64,000 nucleotides of DNA from a virus. Both the position numbers and the translations under genes were made by a program. Positions 1,519-50,734 of the stretch are shown here, in pieces. The notes under the pieces were generated by a model that was not told the DNA's origin, made no database searches, and saw only the letters and a list, made by a program, of their open reading frames with translations. Positions within the stretch are counted from its first letter, which is position 1, and each line of letters begins with the position of its first letter. The stretch lies in the IMG/VR virus record IMGVR_UViG_3300036863_000086, positions 1 through 64,000 of that record; one strand, given 5' to 3'.

Positions 1519-3804
1519 ATGCAGAAGGCTCCCGGCGCGCAATGTGACGAGTGTCCATTGCGCGCCGAACCTTTCGTAGGAACATACGGCCCACTAGACG
1601 CCAAAATCGCTGCAATTGGCGAAGGCCCTGGGCTCCAAGAAGTCGTGTACAAAAAGCCATTCGTCGGAAATTCTGGTAAGCTACTGAAATCAGTCCTGAA
1701 GCACGCTGGGATCGATCCAGAAAAAGAGGTATGGTACACGAATGTCGTCCTCTGCCGACCGCCCGACAATGCAACCCCAACAAAAGAGGCGATTTATTGT
1801 TGCTCGGGGCGGCTTGAAAACGAACTGCAACAAAGGGCACCAGAGAAAATTCTCGCTCTGGGTGGCACTGCCGCAAAAGCGCTGCTTAACACTTCGACTG
1901 GAATCATGGCGCTCCGGCCTGGCCCACCAAGACCGCTGGCTGCGCACAACTGTGAAATTATCCCGACAGTTCACCCGGCAGCATGCCTTCGGAGTGGAGA
2001 CTACTTTCCATTTCTTGTTACCGACATCGGCAAAATCAATTTCGAACCATCAAGCTGGACGCCACCTCGATACCTCGTACCCCACTCGGAAAGGACGGCT
2101 TTATTCGCCATCCGATGGCTCAGCAAATTCAACGAACTCTCAGTAGACATCGAGGTAGCAGTTGAGAAAGACCTGGCATTCGAACACCCATCCAAATACA
2201 GCATTCTCTGCATTGGGATCGCTCCATCAGAGTCTGCTGCGATTGTTCTTCCGAGCAGCGTTCTTTGGTTTCAAACTGTTATTCAAGCTCTTCGAGGGCT
2301 CCTCAAGAAATCGAAGATAATTGCGCAGAACGGGAAGTTCGATATCCCTGGTCTCTCAAGGATCGGGGATTTTGAACTTTACGCAGATACTATGTTAATG
2401 CACTACGCTTCGGATGAGCGTGGTGGAATCCACGGCTTGAAAGTGATGGCTCGTGAGTATCTCGGAGCACCCGACTACAGTGCAAGAATTAAACAATACA
2501 CAAAAGGTTTGGACGGTTTCGCGGGTATACCGCGTGACCTCCTGCATGAATATAATGCCTACGATGCCACACTCACGTTCGGACTATACAGAATTTTTGA
2601 ACGGCAACTACATCATTCAGGTCTGTCCAGTCTGCATGCATTCTTGGTTCAAGCAAGCAATGCCCTAATCCAAGTAGAAACCGAGGGGGTGCTTGTCAAT
2701 GAGGACTATCTGCAAGAACTTGATCGGGACTATCAGGATCGACTTTCGTCACAGGAGAGCGCACTTCAGAAATGGGTACAGAACCCTCGGTCCACTCTTC
2801 AAGTTCGATCCGCTCTCGCTGAACTTGGAGTTGAAACGGCATCAACAGATGTGTCCCATTTGCAGGCTATACACGCATCCATGGGACAATACGAGGGTTC
2901 ACCCGAAGCAGCAGCAGTCAGCGAATTTGTTTCGGCTTTATTAAAATATCGAAAGGACCAGAAGGTACATGGAACCTACATCAAGGGCATCGCCAAAAGG
3001 CTCTACAACGGACGTTGCTATCCTACGTATCTTCTACATGGAACTACCACAGGGCGCCTCTCGTGTAGAAATCCAAACCTTCAGAACATTCCGCGCGGAT
3101 CGGCGATACGCAGACTTTTTGTTGCAAGTCCTGAAAATAGTCTGGTTCAAGCCGATTATAAGCAGGGAGAGCTGCGAGTCATTGCTTGCCTTAGTCGGGA
3201 GCAGTTTCTCGCTGATATTTTCAACGAAAAGCGTGACCTACTCAGCGAAATTGCTCGACGATTCTATGGTCCTAACTTTACAAAAGAGCAGCGAGTAAGA
3301 GCAAAGAACCTCGCGTACGGAAGCTGCTACGGGGCAGAGCCTCTTCGGCTCACAGCATATGAGGGCGTTACCCTTCAAGAAGCTGCTAAGTTTCAATATG
3401 AATTCTTTGAATTCATGCCAAACGTACGACGTTGGCAAGTTGATACACGAGAGCAAGTCTTGAAAGGCAACGACCTCATCACGGCATTCGGGCGCCACCG
3501 ACGGTACACGCTGATCACGAGAGAGAATAAAAAGGATATACTGAATGAATGCCTTGCTTTTGTCCCGCAGAGTACGCTTAGTGATATCTGTTTGTCTAGT
3601 CTTATCCGTCTGGTACATGAGGGGTTTCACCCCCGCATTACTGTCCATGATAGTATTGTGGTTGAGTGCCACAATAGCCAGGTTGCACATACAAGTGAAG
3701 CTCTTTCGCAGATTCTCCCGCAAGTAGCCAAAGAAACTTTCGACGACTATGTTCCATTCCCTGTCGACGTAAAAGCTGGAAGGAGTTGGGGTGACCTTGA
3801 GTGA
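1519..3804 (+). CDS. polA: DNA polymerase family A with N-terminal family-4 uracil-DNA glycosylase domain and 3'-5' exonuclease
   Basis: UDG4 motifs CDECPL, GEGPG, PFVG.SG, TNVVLCRPP, HPA; exo DIE/NGKFD/YNAYD; pol motifs TGRLS..PNLQNIPR, QADYKQGELR, RAKNLAYG..YG, VHDS. Confidence 0.95.
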   Translation: MQKAPGAQCDECPLRAEPFVGTYGPLDAKIAAIGEGPGLQEVVYKKPFVGNSGKLLKSVLKHAGIDPEKEVWYTNVVLCRPPDNATPTKEAIYCCSGRLENELQQRAPEKILALGGTAAKALLNTSTGIMALRPGPPRPLAAHNCEIIPTVHPAACLRSGDYFPFLVTDIGKINFEPSSWTPPRYLVPHSERTALFAIRWLSKFNELSVDIEVAVEKDLAFEHPSKYSILCIGIAPSESAAIVLPSSVLWFQTVIQALRGLLKKSKIIAQNGKFDIPGLSRIGDFELYADTMLMHYASDERGGIHGLKVMAREYLGAPDYSARIKQYTKGLDGFAGIPRDLLHEYNAYDATLTFGLYRIFERQLHHSGLSSLHAFLVQASNALIQVETEGVLVNEDYLQELDRDYQDRLSSQESALQKWVQNPRSTLQVRSALAELGVETASTDVSHLQAIHASMGQYEGSPEAAAVSEFVSALLKYRKDQKVHGTYIKGIAKRLYNGRCYPTYLLHGTTTGRLSCRNPNLQNIPRGSAIRRLFVASPENSLVQADYKQGELRVIACLSREQFLADIFNEKRDLLSEIARRFYGPNFTKEQRVRAKNLAYGSCYGAEPLRLTAYEGVTLQEAAKFQYEFFEFMPNVRRWQVDTREQVLKGNDLITAFGRHRRYTLITRENKKDILNECLAFVPQSTLSDICLSSLIRLVHEGFHPRITVHDSIVVECHNSQVAHTSEALSQILPQVAKETFDDYVPFPVDVKAGRSWGDLE

Positions 3805-4419: not shown

Positions 4420-4579
4420 CCGGCATCCGACGTGGATGGTTATCGTCCCACAGTGGCACTCGGTCACAACTGGAAAAATAGTTCTCACAAAGAGAATCTT
4501 CAGTAGCCTCAACAACGCACAACGATACATTGCGCACCTCGGACTCGACGACGAATATATACTTGTCGGACTCGATTAA
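4412..4579 (+). CDS. small hypothetical protein (55 aa, MSDRHPTW...)
   Basis: Read manually; fills the gap and overlaps the upstream stop; below the ORF track cutoff. Confidence 0.5.
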   Translation: MSDRHPTWMVIVPQWHSVTTGKIVLTKRIFSSLNNAQRYIAHLGLDDEYILVGLD

Positions 4580-4592
4580 ACGAGGTGCGCAA

Positions 4593-4961
4593 GTGGGAAA
4601 TCGGCCAGGGCTCCCAGAAGGGACGATTAGGGAATGGAACGGGTATAGCACTATCAAGCAAAACGGTGGATGGCGCTATACTCATCACGTGATCGCCGAG
4701 GAACAGATCCTGCATCGGCCACTGAATCATAACGAGCTGGTGTGCTTTCGGGATAATGATCGAACAAACCTCAACCCGTCGAACTTAGAGATAAAGATCA
4801 AGCGTCCAAACCGCATCATGAAGAAGCGTCTTCGACTTCGGCAGCAGATCCGCGAAGCTAAACTAAAACTTGAGAATCTCGAAGCCGAACTTCGGACAAT
4901 CGACGCAATCACCGATCAGTCTCGTAAAGTGCCAACTCAAAGTGCAGAAGTGACTGAGTAG
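4593..4961 (+). CDS. HNH-like (degenerate) domain plus coiled coil
   Basis: NGY...W...H.VIAE...L.RPL...E.V.F.DNDRTNL.PSNL; GAGG RBS before GTG 4593. Confidence 0.6.
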   Translation: MGNRPGLPEGTIREWNGYSTIKQNGGWRYTHHVIAEEQILHRPLNHNELVCFRDNDRTNLNPSNLEIKIKRPNRIMKKRLRLRQQIREAKLKLENLEAELRTIDAITDQSRKVPTQSAEVTE

Positions 4962-14679: not shown

Positions 14680-15519
14680 TTAACCAAGAGCAAACCAACG
14701 CATAGTCATGGTCTGTGCGCTTGCAACGGTGTTACGGAATCGAAATGTTGTTGACGTATAGCTATCAGTGCCAGCGACACCGCCAGGCCCACCACCAATG
14801 CCCTGCCCTGACCATAGCGCATGGACATAAACAGGCGTGAAACCAGCACCATGCGTGACAGTCTGGTAACCGCCTGAGTCAGTGGTGAACGTTTGTGGGC
14901 CGCCAAAGTGGAATCGCAGGGTAAAGTCACCGGATTGGCTCCCAGCCAAATATTTGCTAAACGAACCGTCATTGTCGACAATTCCACCACGACGCATTGG
15001 TGCAATCGTTGGCTTGAGACTTGTGATATTGGCGTTGACAATCGTTGTCACAGCAGCGCCAACAAAGACTCGTGCAAGTTTGAGTGTCGAAATTGGCGGC
15101 GTTGGGTCAACCGGCGAGCTAGAAGGCGTACCAGTCACGACTTCCAATGCCCACAGATTGCTACCACTTGAGTCGTAGATATTGTCATAGGCGTGTGCAA
15201 CAACGAGGTCGTTTCGACCAAGTGTTGCATGAGCAGCAGCAATTCCCTTGTTCACTGTGGCGTCGTTGTAACAACGATACATTCCTTGGGTAGCAGGCGT
15301 CGTGTCGCCACGAACATACGCAACACCAGAGGCGACATTGACGGTCATGTTCGGCGTGCCATTTTGCGTCACGTTCATATCCGTGCTTGTGACAACGCCA
15401 CCGTCTGTTGCAGTACCCTCCAATCCATTGGAGTCACGCATAAAGTCGTGCCAGAACGCACGATCAGCAGTTGCGTTATAGCTGAGCGCGTCGAGAAACT
15501 GTGGCGATTGCTCTGCCAT
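14680..15519 (-). CDS. minor tail / baseplate protein
   Basis: MTVNVASGVAYVRG...R.DLVV...V.GTPS..P motif. Confidence 0.7.
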   Translation of the reverse strand: MAEQSPQFLDALSYNATADRAFWHDFMRDSNGLEGTATDGGVVTSTDMNVTQNGTPNMTVNVASGVAYVRGDTTPATQGMYRCYNDATVNKGIAAAHATLGRNDLVVAHAYDNIYDSSGSNLWALEVVTGTPSSSPVDPTPPISTLKLARVFVGAAVTTIVNANITSLKPTIAPMRRGGIVDNDGSFSKYLAGSQSGDFTLRFHFGGPQTFTTDSGGYQTVTHGAGFTPVYVHALWSGQGIGGGPGGVAGTDSYTSTTFRFRNTVASAQTMTMRWFALG

Positions 15520-44023: not shown

Positions 44024-44153
44024 GGGGTTCCCTCCCTTCTATTTGTAAAGCGCAAAACTCGCTTCTACTCTTCAACTTCCAGAGCGTCCCACCTTCCCAG
44101 TTATACTGCCATACGTCGTGCGATCTGGCGAGTTACTGTTCCTTATATAGCAA

Positions 44154-44744
44154 AGCCTGGCCGGAGATGAAATCCGTACACTGCGTGCGAGCCATCATAG
44201 AAGTGAAAACCATGGCACCGAGTGCGAGCCATTGGCTGTGTGAATTCCCATTTGCATCGTGCGAGCCATTTAGAACGTGAAATCCAAGCATATCGTGCGA
44301 GCCAAGATAATTGCGAAATCCATCCATCTCGTGCGAGCCAAGGTAATATGTGCAACCCAAATCATGCGTGCGAGTCATTGAGCGAATGCAACCCATCGCC
44401 TAGCGTACGAGCCATTGCTTACTGTGAAACCCAGGTGTAGCGTGCGAGCCAAGGTATGTATGAAACCCAAGCTAAAGGTGCGAGCCAGTATCGTTGGTGC
44501 AACCCCAAGTGTAGCGTGCGAGCCAAGGTAATGTGTGAAACCCAAGTGTAGCGTGCGTTAGCCGCAAGAACGATGAAATCCGTCCATCTCGTGCGAGCCA
44601 AACAGAGCGTGAAATCCAAGTTTACCGTGCGAGCCATTGGATCGTGTGAAGCCCTAAGCAATGGTGCGAGCCGTTATACCCGTGAAAACCAAATGGAGGT
44701 GCGAGTCAAAGATAAAGTGAAGCCCAGAATCAAGGTACGAGCCA
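44154..44744 (+). repeat. TIGR-like dual-repeat guide array 1 (about 16 units of 36-37 nt)
   Basis: Alternating TGCGAGCCA and TGAAAYCCA repeats separated by variable 9(-10) nt spacers. Confidence 0.9.
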
Positions 44745-44761
44745 AACTCCAAGGAGTTGCA

Positions 44762-45592
44762 GTGACGACAACAGAGCAAGGAATTGTCGTTCCAACGTTG
44801 CCAGAGATCGAAACGCTGGAGCGGAAAATTCGCACAACAGCAGCACAGCTTCCGCCAGAGGAAGCACGACTGCTGGTGCTGCTGTACTACCAATTGCAAG
44901 AACACCGGATCGCCACCGGTAACCAGGCAAAAAGCGGTGGTGACAACCCAATCCTGATGCACTATCACCAGCAGCTCTCTTCACTGGAACGCAGCCTACC
45001 GCCGCTGCTCGGCAAATGGGCACAGTCCCAAACTGCTGGACAGTGGTCCCTGTCACAGGTCGGCGTCGGTCCTGTTATGGCCGCAGGTCTGCTCGCGCAT
45101 ATCGACATTGTCAAATTCCCTTCGGTGTCACACCTGTGGTCATTCGCTGGCCAGAACCCACTTGCAAAATGGGGGAAAGGCCAGAAGCGGCCGTGGAACG
45201 CACAACTCAAGGTGCTGGTCTGGAAAATCGGCGACTCATTTGTCAAGCTCAACAAGCACCCTGACTGCTACTACGGTCATATCTACGCGAATCGCAAGGC
45301 GATCGAAGTCTCTCGCAATGAGCACGGTGCGTTTGCGGAGCAGGCAGCAGAGATTCTTGAGGTTCGTAAAATCAAGGACGAGCGGACGCTGTCCTTCTAC
45401 AAGGCCGGCAAGCTGCCACCGGGGCACATCGATATGCGCGCTCGGCGTTACGCTTCCAAGCGGTTCCTCTCACACTATTTCGTCGTTGCGTATGAGGCAG
45501 CGCACGGCGAGCCTGCTCCTCGTCCATATGTAGAAACAGTGCTCGGGCACACCGACATCGACGCACCGCCAAACTGGCCATTGACCAAGTAG
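44762..45592 (+). CDS. tasA: TasA-like Nop-domain / IS110 C-terminal-like RNA-binding protein, no nuclease domain (276 aa)
   Basis: YYQLQEHRIATGNQ coiled coil, GVGPVMAAGLLAHID...SHLWSFAG, WNAQLK..W.IG.SF.K, Y..IY...K, HIDMRARRY..K.FL; AAGGAG RBS before GTG 44762; flanked by dual-repeat arrays. Confidence 0.8.
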   Translation: MTTTEQGIVVPTLPEIETLERKIRTTAAQLPPEEARLLVLLYYQLQEHRIATGNQAKSGGDNPILMHYHQQLSSLERSLPPLLGKWAQSQTAGQWSLSQVGVGPVMAAGLLAHIDIVKFPSVSHLWSFAGQNPLAKWGKGQKRPWNAQLKVLVWKIGDSFVKLNKHPDCYYGHIYANRKAIEVSRNEHGAFAEQAAEILEVRKIKDERTLSFYKAGKLPPGHIDMRARRYASKRFLSHYFVVAYEAAHGEPAPRPYVETVLGHTDIDAPPNWPLTK

Positions 45593-45604
45593 CAATTAAT
45601 TACT

Positions 45605-46295
45605 TGCCAAATGGTGATCGTGAAACCCATATCCTTCGTGCGAGCCAAGAACGTAATGAAACCCAAATCGTAGGTGCGAGCCTCTATAAGGGTGAAACCC
45701 ATAATTCCTGTGCGAGCCATGTCGCGCTGAAACCCGAGCGGTATGTGCGAGCCCGTCTGATCGTGAAACCCATATCATGCGTGCGAGCCATAGCAGCTAT
45801 GAAACCCATGCCCTTTGTGCGAGCCTCTATGAGGGTGAAATCCGCAATCACTGTGCGAGCCACCAGCAAAGTGCAAATCCGTACTTCATGTGCGAGCTAC
45901 AGGTTTTAGTGCAACCCAATATAGTCGTGCGAGCCACTACAGAGGCGAAACCCATACTCCAGGTGCGAGCCATTGCAGTCATGAAACCCATGCCTCTTGT
46001 GCGAGCCACCGTGGTTCGGTGAAATCCGTACGTCGAGTGCAAGCCAAGACGTGTATGAAACCCTGATGTAGCGTGCGAGCCGGAACACAGGTGAAACCCT
46101 ATGGCTCAGTGCGAGCCATACTTTCTGTGAATCCCAATCCATGCGTGCGAGCCATTGTCTTCGTGAAGCCCAAGCATTCAGTGCGAGCCATCAACAGTAA
46201 TGAAACCCAAATTAGGCGTGCGAGTCCAAGCATAGGGTGAAGTCCGTAGCCTTGGTGCGAGCCAAATTCTCAGTGAAACCCATAATGTTCGTGCG
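45605..46295 (+). repeat. TIGR-like dual-repeat guide array 2 (about 19 units)
   Basis: Same 36-nt architecture; ends exactly at TGCG. Confidence 0.9.
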
Positions 46296-46338
46296 TTTTC
46301 ACCCAAAACATGCCCAAATTCGTCGAAACTAGGAGGAA

Positions 46339-46557
46339 ATGTCACTATTTGCTGACCTAACATACCTGCGTCGCAGCCGACATATTTTCGTCGACATGCG
46401 TGGCGGGACATCGCACACCTACTTCGGCGAGGTTTCCCAGGAGCGCGGGCTTCTTGTTATAACAACTCGAACAGGGTTCTTTGGGCTACGACGGCAAATT
46501 ACAAAAATCCCACACACCTCCATCGAATCCTGGTCCTACTGGACCACCCCGTATTGA
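46339..46557 (+). CDS. hypothetical protein (inter-array cargo)
   Basis: AGGAGG RBS. Confidence 0.65.
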   Translation: MSLFADLTYLRRSRHIFVDMRGGTSHTYFGEVSQERGLLVITTRTGFFGLRRQITKIPHTSIESWSYWTTPY

Positions 46558-46569
46558 GGAGGAGGAGAA

Positions 46570-46794
46570 GTGTTCGAAGGCCCAATCAAGAAATTGGAAA
46601 CAATACTCGACAAAACATCGAAAGAGATCAACGAGGGAAAATACTGGGAATATATCGTTGATACCATAGGGCGCCCAGAAGCTCTCCAACCACTCCTCAC
46701 CTCACGCGGTAAGGATCGTTGGGAACTTGTCAGCGCGGTCAACGACACACTGTTTTTCAAGCGCCCAATGCAAAAAGGGGCAAAGAATTCATGA
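46570..46794 (+). CDS. DUF4177-like small protein
   Basis: WEY.......L...G...WELVS......FFKRP; GGAGG RBS. Confidence 0.6.
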   Translation: MFEGPIKKLETILDKTSKEINEGKYWEYIVDTIGRPEALQPLLTSRGKDRWELVSAVNDTLFFKRPMQKGAKNS

Positions 46795-47036
46795 CCACAG
46801 GCACCATGAAGACGATGGATCAGTCTGGTGACACCGAAATCAAGTGGGACCGCAGCGATCCAGACTCAATTGCAATCGCTCGGGAAGCATTTAATGAGGC
46901 TACTCAGCGCCGTTCGGAAGGCGGCAAGGGCTATCTGGCGTATCGCGTTGAGCGTGGTGGTAAGGGTGCAGTCATTCGTGACTTCGATCCTGCCGCCGAG
47001 CGGATCATCCTTGCGCCGCCTATGGCCGGTGGTTAA
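46791..47036 (+). CDS. 81-aa protein ending in C-terminal diglycine (PPMAGG)
   Basis: ATGA overlap; MD.SGD...WD...GYLAY...FDP.A..IIL.PP.AGG. Confidence 0.7.
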   Translation: MTTGTMKTMDQSGDTEIKWDRSDPDSIAIAREAFNEATQRRSEGGKGYLAYRVERGGKGAVIRDFDPAAERIILAPPMAGG

Positions 47037-47049
47037 TTCAGAGGAATAT

Positions 47050-47610
47050 ATGCCGTACCGCGTCTATGCTTCCGAAGCGACAGCCACCACAATTAACATG
47101 AGCGCAACAACAAACACCACCACAGATCCTGGCAACTATTACATCTACTTCAATACCGGCTATCGATACCCGAGCGCCGAGGAACTACGTCGTCTGCAAC
47201 CACAAGCATACGAATTTGCCAACGCCACGCAACAGTACCGGCGTTGGCAACAGCAACAGACAGCGCATGAACGACAGGCAGCACGTGAACATGAGAAGGA
47301 AGCACAGGAAGCACAAAAGCGTGCAGAAGTGCTCCTGCTCTCCGTTCTCGACGCAAGGCAAGCTGAACAGTGGGCAACGACCCACGAAGTCGACGTGGTC
47401 GGCTCAGAAGGGCACAACTACCGTCTGACTCGCGCTCGTCAAGGTGGCGTATTCCGCCTTGGGTCACGAAACCGTCGTACGCATTCGCTGTGTATCCACC
47501 ACGACTACGCAATTCCTATTGAGGACCAAATCGCAGCGCAGAAGCTCCAGATCGAAACGGACGAAGCCGAATTCTGCCGTATCGCAAATGAGAGCCCAGT
47601 ACTCGCGTAA
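47050..47610 (+). CDS. hypothetical protein, partner of the diglycine protein
   Basis: GAGGA RBS; V.GS.G..YR...LCIH...P..D...AQKL.IETDE..F...AN. Confidence 0.7.
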   Translation: MPYRVYASEATATTINMSATTNTTTDPGNYYIYFNTGYRYPSAEELRRLQPQAYEFANATQQYRRWQQQQTAHERQAAREHEKEAQEAQKRAEVLLLSVLDARQAEQWATTHEVDVVGSEGHNYRLTRARQGGVFRLGSRNRRTHSLCIHHDYAIPIEDQIAAQKLQIETDEAEFCRIANESPVLA

Positions 47611-47616
47611 CAACTT

Positions 47617-49578
47617 AGCCATTGCTAGCGGTGAAGCCCATGCCTTTTGTGCGAGCCACTAGCCCATGTTAAGCACATACCGTGCGTGCGAGCTATAGGT
47701 AGCTGTGAAGCCCATGTCTTTTGTGCGAGCCACCATCCTAGTTAATAACAAAGTGTACGTGCGAGCCACCACGAGCGTCAAATCCCATAGGGGCCATGCG
47801 AGCCAATAATGCGTGTGAAATCCGTCGACAAAGTGCGAGCCAAGATACTTATGAAACCCGTACCATCTGTGCAAGCCTCTGAATGCGGTTGAAACCATAC
47901 CATCTGTGCGAGCCGTACCCTTAGTGAAATCCTCTTCGGCGGTGCGAGCCACACTCATTTGTGAAACCCCAGTACAACGTGCGAGCTACAAATGGTGTGA
48001 AACCCAAATTTCCCGTGCGAGCCACTCCCCGTTGTGCAAGCCCGAGATGTGAATGCGAGCCATTGAAACGGTAAAATCCAATTCCTTGGTGCGAGCCATT
48101 GAACCCGTAAAATCCGTATCTCTCGTGAAGTCCGGGTTGCATGTGCGAGCCACAAGTTCAGTGAAATCCATGTAGTACGTGCGAGCCACTCCCTGTTGTG
48201 CAACCCGGAGGTGCAGTGCGAGCCACGGCAATGCATGTAACCCAAATTTCCAGTGCGAGCCATATCGTTTGTGCAACCCAATAGAACCGTGCGAGCCATT
48301 GAATCTGAGAAACCCAATTCCTTGGTGCGAGCCATGTTCAGTGCGAAATCCAAGTGCAACGTGCGCGCCAGTCTGCGTGTGAAACCCATACCATGTGTGC
48401 GAGCCATTACAGTGAGTAAAATCCACTATCTTGGTGCGAGTCATTACAGTGAGTGAACCCCAATGGATCTGTGCGAGCCATTATTCCCGTGAAATCCAAT
48501 ATCTCAGTGCGGGCCAAGATGCTTGCGAAACCCATAAAGTCAGTGCGAGCCATTGCCGTCATGAAATCCATTGACTCAGTGCGAGCCATTACTTCCGTGA
48601 AATCCGTACGTAGCGTGCGAGCCATCCCAGTCGTGAAGTCCATAGTTGGTCTGCGAGTCAAGCTAAGCGTGCAACCCAACATGGCCGTGCGAGCCATTGT
48701 CGTCATGAAAACCAGGGTTAACGTGCGAGCCATTGAAACAGTGAAACCAGTCCTTAACGCGCATCCCATTACGTAAGCCAACAGCCGCGTGACATCCATA
48801 CTACTCGTGCGAGCCAGCTCCTAAGTGAAAACCGTACCCCTTGTGCGCACGCCTATAGTGAAACCCTGTTCGATGTGCGAGCCGTTGTTATGGTGAAATC
48901 CCTACCACATGTGCGAGCCAAAGCAATTGTGCAACCCAATGTCGGTCTGCGAGCCAAAAGCAAGGTGAAAACCGTGCCCTATAGTGCGAGCCATGTCTGA
49001 AATGAAATCCACAGGGGTCTGTGCGAGCCACAGGCAATGGTGCAAACCGAAGTCGAAGTGCGAGCCCCGCGCGACAGTGAAATCCATATAAGCGGTGCGA
49101 GCCGTACCATTAGTGAAATCCCATTCGTCCGATGCGAGCCATGCGATATGCGAAACCCATAGCAGGCATGCGAGCCAACGGCAGGGCGAAAACCGTACCC
49201 CATAGTGCGTGCATAAGCCATGTCTTCTCTGAAATCCAGGGATCTCGTGCGGGCCAAGGTGTGTGATGAAACCGACCCCAACGTGCGAGCCATTAGCAAG
49301 GTGAAACCCGTACTCCTGGTGCGAGCCATTACTTCCGTGAAATCCTCCGTCCTTGGTGCGAGCCATCGTCAAGGTGAACTCCATTCCAATTGTGCAAGCC
49401 ATTCAAGCAGTGAAAACCCACCCCAAGAGTGCGAGCCATATTGCGCGTGAAACCCGCCGCCCTTCGTGCGAGCCACATCGTCGGTGAAACCCAAGCATAT
49501 TGTGCGAGCCAACGAGCGTCTGCAATCCATATTGCGGGTGCGAGCCAGTCACAACGTTCAACCCGTGGGCATTGTGCG
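47617..49578 (+). repeat. TIGR-like dual-repeat guide array 3 (about 53 units)
   Basis: Starts AGCCA, ends TGCG; 36-nt period with a few irregular units. Confidence 0.9.
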
Positions 49579-49621
49579 TCCATCAATCCAAAAACAGCGT
49601 TCGAAAGGGCTACAAGTTAAA

Positions 49622-49981
49622 ATGGTTGACTCCACCGCCCAACACCTCCTTGCCACCGCCGTTGGCAAGCTCCCATCGTCCCAACTCTACCTCGAAGCCT
49701 TTCTCCTCGACCGTAAAGTTGTCGGTGACCAATACTCGCGCTCCCGCTGTCCCATCGCCAACTACCTTGCATCGGAACTCCGCATTTCTCCCCGAGAACG
49801 AGTTTGGGTTGGTTGGAGCACCGTTTGCATCGTCCGTCGCCGTCCCTTCCTCCCCGCAAAAACCATCGCGCTCGTGAACCTCACGCTCGGCCACAGGGTC
49901 TTCATCCGCAACTTTGATGGTGGTTTCTACCCGTCGCTCATTGCCACGTCCCGTACCGCGTACCCACGAATCCCACAGTAA
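49622..49981 (+). CDS. hypothetical protein (paralog of 50769..51110)
   Basis: FL....V.G......CPIA.YL..EL...FI..FD.G.YP.L. Confidence 0.6.
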   Translation: MVDSTAQHLLATAVGKLPSSQLYLEAFLLDRKVVGDQYSRSRCPIANYLASELRISPRERVWVGWSTVCIVRRRPFLPAKTIALVNLTLGHRVFIRNFDGGFYPSLIATSRTAYPRIPQ

Positions 49982-49996
49982 CTAAACGAAGGAACC

Positions 49997-50734
49997 ATGG
50001 TCGTTGCTGCCAGAAATTGGGAGACGAATGCTGCCTTCTGGATTCGTATCATTCGAGAAAGGCTTGATCCCTACCGCACAGAACTGACTGATGATGCCGT
50101 GCTCAACGAGGTTGGTCCTGCCGAGGGACGGAGAATTCTCGATGCAGGCTGCGGTGAGGGATATATGTCGCGGCTGCTCGCACATCGAGGTGCCAGTGTT
50201 GTAGGAATCGATTCTTGCCAAGCATTGGTTCATGCAGCCCAAGATCACACCACAGAAGGTTTGAGTATTAGCTACGAGGTGGGCGACGTTGGAGCACTGC
50301 CACTAGCTAATACTCAATTCGATATTATCGTATGCAATCACCTCATCAACGACCTTCCCGATCCAGCTATCCCGTTCCAAGAGTTTGCTCGCGTCCTAAA
50401 ACCACGCGGGCGGCTTGTTATCCTTATGCTTCACCCGTGCTTCTCTATCCCCAGATCGACGGAACAGCGATCCAATGGAGGACTGATCAGTTCGGAGTAC
50501 TTTAGGGTGCGACGGATTGAAAAGCACTTCGAAATTGGCGGGGTTACATCGCCCACAACGGTCGTTGTATGGATAAGATCCATAGAGTCTTATAGTGAGC
50601 TGTTGTTCGGTGCCGGCTTCACTATAACTGGACTGCAAGAGCCACGCCCAACAGAGCAGTTACTGCAAGACCCTTGGTGGCGTGTGAGCTTCTCCCAACC
50701 TCGTTTTTTGTTGATAACTGCCAAGAGACGTTGA
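49997..50734 (+). CDS. class I SAM-dependent methyltransferase
   Basis: ILDAGCGEG, GID, FDII, E..RVLKPRGRL; AAGGA RBS. Confidence 0.9.
   Translation: MVVAARNWETNAAFWIRIIRERLDPYRTELTDDAVLNEVGPAEGRRILDAGCGEGYMSRLLAHRGASVVGIDSCQALVHAAQDHTTEGLSISYEVGDVGALPLANTQFDIIVCNHLINDLPDPAIPFQEFARVLKPRGRLVILMLHPCFSIPRSTEQRSNGGLISSEYFRVRRIEKHFEIGGVTSPTTVVVWIRSIESYSELLFGAGFTITGLQEPRPTEQLLQDPWWRVSFSQPRFLLITAKRR

Follow-up and report, generated by a model that had tools for sequence, protein, structure and literature searches.

Slot-preserving half-spacer reuse and probable short-tract exchange in the dual-repeat TIGR-TasA arrays of a soil phage

The DNA considered here is the first 64,000 nucleotides (nt) of the IMG/VR virus record IMGVR_UViG_3300036863_000086, called the window below and numbered from its first letter. 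The full record measures 72,476 nt and encodes a tape-measure protein, a large terminase and a portal protein; it belongs to a tailed soil phage. Positions 44154-49578 on the + strand hold three dual-repeat TIGR arrays with about 88 guides around a tasA gene of 276 amino acids (aa). The locus is an ordinary, though unusually large, dual-repeat TIGR-TasA system, and its guides probably change through exchange of half-guides, gain and loss of whole units, and point mutation.

44154..44743, + strand: TIGR array 1, with 16 A and 16 B half-spacers; it starts with AGCC and ends with a full edge repeat before tasA.
44762..45592, + strand: tasA, 276 aa, between arrays 1 and 2, with a GTG start 9 nt after AAGGAG.
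45620..46295, + strand: TIGR array 2, with 18 A and 19 B half-spacers, ending with the 3'-truncated edge repeat GTGCG (46291-46295).
46339..47610, + strand: four small open reading frames (ORFs; 72, 74, 81 and 186 aa) that separate array 2 from array 3, with no family assigned.
47617..49578, + strand: TIGR array 3, with start AGCC and end GTGCG; it has 53 half-spacers each of type A and type B, along with irregular units (48107-48142, a loop-loop half unit; 48741-48806, degenerate units).

The arrays have a period of 36-37 nt (TRF) and alternate two 9-nt repeats, GTGCGAGCC(A) and GTGAAAYCC(A), the latter less often read as GTGCAACCC. The variable segments between repeats are mostly 9 nt (131/176) or 10 nt (35/176) long. 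Apart from one irregular segment, they comprise 87 half-spacers of type A and 88 of type B, in arrays of 16, 18-19 and 53 units. There are 84 regular guides, and the repeats are strongly conserved across all of them. Half an edge repeat, AGCC, opens arrays 1 and 3, and GTGCG closes arrays 2 and 3. These truncated halves identify GTGCGAGCC as the edge repeat and the A-rich repeat as the loop repeat in the terms of Faure 2025. By position, CC is found in 58-69 of 61-70 units, the following A in 51/61 and 48/70, and TG in 54-69 of 61-70. According to the text of Faure 2025 (PMC12045711), CCA is box C and UG is box D, flanking each spacer. Since CCA and UG flank every spacer, the register used by a first-pass annotation of this DNA, which began each half-spacer 9 nt long after CCA, is the published one. 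The same annotation held that most spacers end in G, and this was borne out in 66/85 A and 82/88 B half-spacers; the near-invariant terminal G thus adds little guide diversity at that position.

The protein encoded between arrays 1 and 2 matches PDB chain 9mty (331 aa, deposited under an IS110-family name; E=1.2e-16) from chain residue 119 onward, and the TasH chain (21kl; E=1.5e-12) from chain residue 134 onward. We take 9mty to be the TasR of Faure 2025. Both matches cover the Nop part alone, and the ORF at 44762-45592 is therefore TasA. The match to phrog_4285 reaches 3.5e-42, and that to Pfam PF02371 scores 19.4 bits, under the cut-off of 21.3. Pfam assigns no nuclease family to the 276 aa, and an HNH or RuvC N-terminal part is absent. 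TasA homologues number 2141; Y256 and H263 are invariant in five homologues and align with Y and H of the TasH chain, which makes them candidates for the Y/H pair of the C-terminal processing loop that dual-repeat Tas proteins have.

The first-pass annotation had named five 9-nt half-spacers that recur with different partners, and all ten of its coordinates are correct.

TCCATCTCG, B half-spacer: 44323 and 44583.
ATTCCTTGG, B half-spacer: 48081 and 48317; the 9-mer also occurs outside the arrays at 15281 and 42782.
TACCATCTG, B half-spacer: 47861 and 47898.
TTACTTCCG, A half-spacer: 48589 and 49329.
TTACAGTGAG, A half-spacer: 48407 and 48444.

A sixth exact repeated 9-mer, AGTGTAGCG, was also found. 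Counted over the 173 half-spacers of the annotation's register (85 A and 88 B), the six exact repeats compare with a mean of 0.166, and none of 3000 column permutations reached six; reuse is far above chance. The near-identical families listed earlier are likewise present, with one-mismatch pairs in that register numbering 9 for A (null 1.15) and 13 for B (null 2.5). Pairs with at most one mismatch amount to 13 in A and 10 in B, where 1.65 and 1.2 are expected.

Near-identity respects the slot. Near-identical pairs that join A to A or B to B number 23 (2.85 expected), those that join A to B only 2 (2.0 expected); against an even split, the binomial probability of 23 versus 2 is 1e-5. At an edit distance of at most one, 24 of 26 pairs lie within one slot type. 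Three cases illustrate how reused halves are paired.

48588..48596, + strand: A half-spacer ATTACTTCC, identical at 49328-49336, with unrelated B partners (GTACGTAGC and TCCGTCCTTG).
48406..48415, + strand: A half-spacer ATTACAGTGA, identical in the adjacent unit at 48443-48452, with differing B partners (ACTATCTTG and AATGGATCT).
48080..48088, + strand: B half-spacer AATTCCTTG, identical at 48316-48324, with related A partners two edits apart (ATTGAAACG and ATTGAATCT) and a third A partner in strain X4.

The earlier description of the partners as different is largely accurate, since the partner is at least four edits apart in 19 of 24 same-slot pairs; in four pairs it is three edits apart and in one pair two. 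Partners in the same guide show a small but significant tendency to be inherited together (mean edit distance 4.79 vs 5.69, P = 0.003), and neighbours across an edge repeat show no closeness (5.67 vs 5.66). Similar halves are enriched about threefold within the same array (17/3217 pairs vs 7/4181 between arrays, Fisher P = 0.012). An identical loop variant adjoins both members in 12 of 77 pairs with at most two edits, against 453 of 7321 other pairs (P = 0.003). Guides with A and B swapped are functional for DNA cleavage according to the text of Faure 2025 (PMC12045711), and an orientation-blind capture of target half-sites should therefore fill both slots about equally; captured half-sites would appear equally in A and B under the target geometry derived below. 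Slot fidelity would thus be expected under in-register copying and not under such capture.

Natural variants of the locus reveal what kinds of change occur. Seven soil-metagenome runs (X1-X7) contain parts of the stretch, and the contigs of four were compared over 44100-49650. The strain variants come from three other studies, and the results below concern those listed: 40 substitutions out of a total of 111, 12 indels out of 17, and 32 contig pieces out of 92. The contigs of X2 leave 46332-47447 and much of array 3 uncovered. The tasA gene is about 98-99% identical between strains, with 6 other letters over 836 nt in X2 and 9 over 508 nt in X3.

44293..44328, + strand: 36-nt guide unit with halves AAGATAATT and ATCCATCTC, absent from X2, X3 and X4; the edge repeat holds the junction, and 14 nt are common to both sides.
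46042..46113, + strand: two guide units (72 nt), absent from X2, X3 and X4; the junction lies within the edge repeat.
47838..47873, + strand: 36-nt guide unit with halves AAGATACTT and GTACCATCT, absent from X4; it holds one of two tandem copies of TACCATCT.
46255..46264, + strand: site of an extra unit in X2, X3 and X4, with A = ATTGTCGTC and B = AAGCATCTC.
44600..44608, + strand: A half-spacer AAACAGAGC, replaced by ACCGTGGTTCG in X2 and X3 and by a third allele in X4, with unchanged flanks.
46008..46018, + strand: 11-nt A half-spacer ACCGTGGTTCG of array 2, the candidate donor of the replacement at 44600.

X3 and X4 carry another extra unit at 44699. All five listed gains and losses of whole units have their junction in the edge repeat and lie inside the arrays rather than at one end; whole guides are thus gained or lost. 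The A half of the extra unit, ATTGTCGTC, is identical to 48696-48704, whose B half differs. The earlier suggestion that the loop repeat serves as the recombination junction needs correcting, since it is not the main one: the junctions of all five strain unit changes fall in the edge repeat, and so do those of both indels between two related loci described below (L021 and L025). Replacement of a single half-spacer would nevertheless need both an edge and a loop boundary. Such a replacement is seen in X2, which departs from the window over 44329-44743 by just 6 substitutions and 2 insertions, all inside the half-spacer at 44600-44608; X2 retains ACCGTGGTTCG at its array 2 site as well. In X4, the stretch 48024-48178 is replaced by a single unit with B half AATTCCTTG, which thereby gains a third partner. 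X4 also carries a chimeric guide in which the array 2 A half ATACTTTCT and its unique loop variant GTGAATCCC are followed by the array 3 B half ATTCGTCCG.

The same features are found in other arrays of the repeat family. The same repeats occur in 48 stretches of IMG/VR contigs (78 with a looser pattern), and TasA homologues are present at 34 of the first 48 loci. With duplicate arrays removed, these 48 loci contain 24 within-slot near-identities where 2.6 are expected, and 6 cross-slot where 2.3 are expected; 16 of the 48 hold at least one near-identical pair. The 30 listed pairs, in which duplicate loci are counted, comprise 12 isolated halves, 11 with a single similar neighbour, 4 in which both neighbours are similar, and 3 that lack a neighbour to compare. 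Over 6536 nt, loci L035 and L044 are separated by six mismatches and one gap (99.89% identity), and a single B half-spacer (AATGACAAA vs AAGGCCGATG) accounts for all but one of these seven differences. Between loci L021 and L025 there are two whole-unit indels of 72 nt, both with an edge-repeat junction, and single-base changes. Their array core (L021 3253-3441 vs L025 2250-2438) is 98.9% identical, compared with 86-92% in the flanks, which suggests purifying selection on these guides. Loci L058 and L082 have one whole guide in common, followed by the next A half and loop with a different B half. Reordering and replacement of whole guides are also seen among related arrays. In L025 and L059, the guides ATACAAAGT-AAGGTGTCA and AAGCTCATC-ATAAGTTTC stand in opposite order, so whole units can be reordered.

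We suggest, at a probability of roughly 65%, that the arrays change by slot-preserving short-tract exchange, by duplication and deletion of units at repeats, and by point mutation. Three DNA-level processes would be at work, with the 9-10-nt repeats serving as short homology. Whole units would be gained or lost through unequal exchange or slippage between the well-conserved edge repeats. Short tracts bounded by an edge and a loop repeat would be copied non-reciprocally, in a gene-conversion-like manner or through template switching. A copied half-spacer, sometimes accompanied by its loop variant, would enter the same slot of another unit or array and create a new A-B pairing. Point substitutions and 1-nt indels would add further variants. 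Each of the three event types has an example among the natural strain variants. The first-pass annotation had derived the guides from duplication, recombination and point mutation. Unit gain and loss, copying across arrays, chimeric guides and families differing by one base agree with this origin, and the replacement between L035 and L044 suggests that it may not be the sole source.

Several observations weigh against this proposal. Homology of 9-10 nt is very short for classical homologous recombination, and no recombinase was recognised in 41 ORFs. No donor for the replaced half-spacer of L035 and L044 was found in either record, and several variant half-spacers of the strains, e.g. AGAGTCTAT, have no match in the window; half-spacers without a donor imply that copying within arrays cannot be the whole story, and some acquisition route for new half-spacers besides recombination is possible. 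The strain variants are assembled contigs from other samples rather than single molecules of one population, and several variant units were read by eye. The better conserved core of L021 and L025 implies that guides are under selection, which could shape the copies that survive. The evidence on mechanism and direction is also indirect.

A tentative extension would regard the 9-nt half-guide as a mobile cassette, with slot-preserving exchange favoured, possibly even actively promoted, and taking the place of Cas1-like adaptation. If so, phages would draw on a stock of A and B halves and create new 18-bp specificities by combining them. The single replacements between X2 or X3 and the window, and between L035 and L044, would on this view be traces of a process dedicated to replacing half-spacers.

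Among competing explanations, neutral turnover of the kind seen in minisatellites is doubtful yet the most serious; copies and chimeras would arise in the way proposed above, but most re-paired guides would have no target and there would be no adaptive diversification. Irregular or decayed units (48107-48142, 48741-48806), edge repeats with internal insertions, unit indels inside the arrays without polarity, and the lack of a convincing target in the phage's own genome are consistent with such drift. The guides common to L021 and L025 are better conserved than their flanks and the repeats are strongly conserved across the 84 regular guides, which argues against neutrality in general but does not bear directly on the chimeric guides. 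Independent acquisition is unlikely; here some other machinery would take up guides separately from targets with a 9-bp half-site in common (repeated motifs or paralogous sites, for instance), and reuse would mirror target biology rather than recombination of the arrays. The apparently selected guides of L021 and L025 and the absence of an L035/L044 donor from either contig would fit this origin, and short spacers yield many false target matches according to the text of one preprint (10.64898/2026.09.09.750476). Acquisition accounts poorly for the 23 within-slot versus 2 cross-slot pairs without cross-slot excess, for rare loop-repeat variants that travel along with a half-spacer, for the exact copy of an odd-length 11-nt half-spacer in another array, with the surrounding 415 nt unchanged, and for whole-unit indel junctions that fall in repeats.

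The two technical explanations carry very little weight. Misassembly, in which metagenome repeats were collapsed or misjoined, is a natural concern for highly repetitive arrays. Identical stretches around reused halves are at most about 29 nt long though, too short for assembly collapse. X3 covers 48083-48821 in a 741-nt contig with 5 other letters and 2 gaps, and 48910-49639 in a 730-nt contig with none, an independent confirmation of the window's order over both stretches; contigs from three studies, at depths between 8 and 135, show the same unit indels. An artefact of assembly is thus highly improbable. Chance or base composition is scarcely credible at all and was rejected. Spacer starts are A/T-rich, ATTG prefixes recur, and the first spacer positions are biased, so that a position-specific first-order Markov null, deliberately generous and stricter than column permutation, lifts the expected pairs with at most one mismatch to 3.75 in A and 3.1 in B. 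The observed 13 and 10 exceed even this null (P = 0.0003 and 0.004), the column shuffles never reach six exact pairs, and there is no between-slot excess despite the similar composition of the slots.

The locus resembles the dual-repeat TIGR-TasA systems described in the texts of two TIGR papers (PMC12045711; 10.64898/2026.09.09.750476) in its nuclease-free Nop-domain Tas, CCA and TG around the spacers, truncated edge halves at array ends, tas flanked by arrays on either side, origin in a phage and lack of an adaptation gene. Its two alternating repeats of 9-10 nt, spacers of about 9 nt and 36-nt unit likewise place it in the dual-repeat class. It differs from a typical member in size, with about 88 guides in three arrays compared with the published "most often 5 to 15" units. 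These papers catalogue 65,635 tigRNAs in 4,126 arrays of the dual-repeat class, and the preprint text describes TasA-type proteins as RNA-guided repressors (10.64898/2026.09.09.750476). The texts of both Faure 2025 (PMC12045711) and Xu 2026 (10.64898/2026.09.09.750476) declare spacer origin and array expansion unknown. No account of half-spacer reuse, slot fidelity or strain-level changes of units and half-units was found in those texts, though their supplements or TIGRSafari data could hold such observations. A term search of the text of a further preprint (10.64898/2026.08.11.744272) gave nothing on array duplication, acquisition, expansion or gene conversion, and our literature search returned no paper on TIGR spacer origin or array expansion. 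To the extent of that search, this mode of array change is new.

Minisatellites and cassette gene conversion offer a parallel, with unequal exchange and patchy, short-tract, non-reciprocal copying that produces mosaics. In contrast to those systems, the variable cassettes here are guide halves of 8-9 nt between functional RNA motifs, and a further 18-bp DNA specificity would result from every new pairing. CRISPR arrays are also tandem repeat-spacer arrays of guide RNAs, and CRISPR units can be lost via repeat-repeat recombination according to the text of Faure 2025 (PMC12045711). The present locus has neither a single repeat of 25-36 nt with spacers of similar size nor Cas1-Cas2, and does not match CRISPR-Cas in these features. 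It has instead two alternating repeats of 9-10 nt and split 9-nt half-guides, with no Cas family in the scanned ORFs; the changes lie inside the arrays and are not leader-polarised, and half a guide is exchangeable. IS110 bridge RNAs and box C/D snoRNAs, named as relatives in the text of PMC12045711, are similar in their split guide segments, box C/D-like flanks and Nop-type binding. They are single units or dispersed genes, whereas the halves here re-assort in long arrays, and this TasA has no recombinase or methyltransferase partner fused to it.

Half-guide reshuffling suggests how arrays might change without known spacer-acquisition machinery. It provides countable event types, i.e. edge-repeat indels of whole guides, slot-keeping transfer of half-spacers and point changes, and the question of spacer origin is now testable across 6,685 catalogued arrays and at the bench. 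Re-pairing of guides also makes a half-spacer match alone weak evidence of a target, and half-spacers common to different phages may reflect exchange rather than common targets.

Targets were sought in the phage's own genome. From the "C - 5" rule and the 8-nt 3' overhangs of cleavage given in the text of Faure 2025 (PMC12045711), the target geometry was derived: on one strand, the B sequence and then the A sequence in reverse complement. Perfect and one-mismatch sites are both absent from the 72.5 kb. Sites with two mismatches number 3 in the first register used by the analysis (0.5-0.65 expected), and 2 in the published register and geometry with gaps of 0-2 nt (0.7 expected, P = 0.15). These counts make no convincing case for an excess of own-genome targets, and short spacers give many false target matches as noted in the text of Xu 2026 (10.64898/2026.09.09.750476). 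In large sequence collections, 18-mers are expected to match by chance. One candidate, 1347-1364, matches the guide at 48624 (ATCCCAGTC-ATAGTTGGT) at 16/18 in the first register and was rejected, as its halves overlap by 2 nt in the published register. The X2 variant of the B half ATAGTTGGT would raise the match at 1347-1364 to 17/18.

The earlier remark that no adaptation gene is evident agrees with a scan of 41 distinct ORFs, which revealed no Cas1/Cas2 or other Cas family and no integrase, reverse transcriptase or recombinase family, with ORFs beyond 64000 and many small ORFs lying outside the scan. The small ORFs beside the arrays have no Pfam or PHROG family, save a sub-threshold HEPN_Toprim_N match for the 186-aa ORF, and recur at none of 48 other loci with the same repeats; they were rejected as adaptation candidates on these grounds. 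No close relative was found among viral, metagenome and genome contigs with TasA or a five-sequence alignment as query, the nearest records possibly lying outside the searched set. An exact 32-nt stretch of tasA had no match in metagenome or viral contigs. Elsewhere in the window, 1519-3804 encodes a 761-aa family A DNA polymerase with an N-terminal domain of the uracil-DNA-glycosylase superfamily and a 3'-5' exonuclease domain, 4530-4961 is a free-standing HNH endonuclease ORF, and 49997-50734, just downstream of array 3, encodes an S-adenosylmethionine-dependent methyltransferase.

Some details of the arrays deserve mention. A simple scan gave no usable promoter and found no terminator after the arrays. 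The base after CC covaries only marginally with loop position 7 (P = 0.05). Edge repeats at 44553-44563, 48843-48853 and 49205-49219 contain insertions of 2, 2 and 6 nt right after GTGCG, which is also the breakpoint of the truncated array-end repeats in the TIGR family. The tasA gene sits in a would-be spacer-A slot (44735-45628), with a full edge repeat at 44735-44743 followed by the ribosome-binding site and the gene, and the first array element after its stop codon is the loop repeat at 45620. Array 2 ends with GTGCG (46291-46295) and array 3 opens with AGCC (47617-47620), with a 1.3-kb block of four ORFs in between, and one X2 contig runs beyond 46295 into AGCC plus another spacer. This continuation and the complementary half repeats imply that arrays 2 and 3 may be a single array that an insertion at mid-edge has divided. 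The A half-spacer family ATTGAAACG, ATTGAACCC, ATTGAATCT and ATTGAAACA (48062-48115, 48298-48306, 48732-48740) resembles the loop repeat TTGAAACC, and letters matching the ATTGAAACG-type family occupy the loop-repeat position in strain X4, which hints at half-unit register shifts of 18 nt in array 3.

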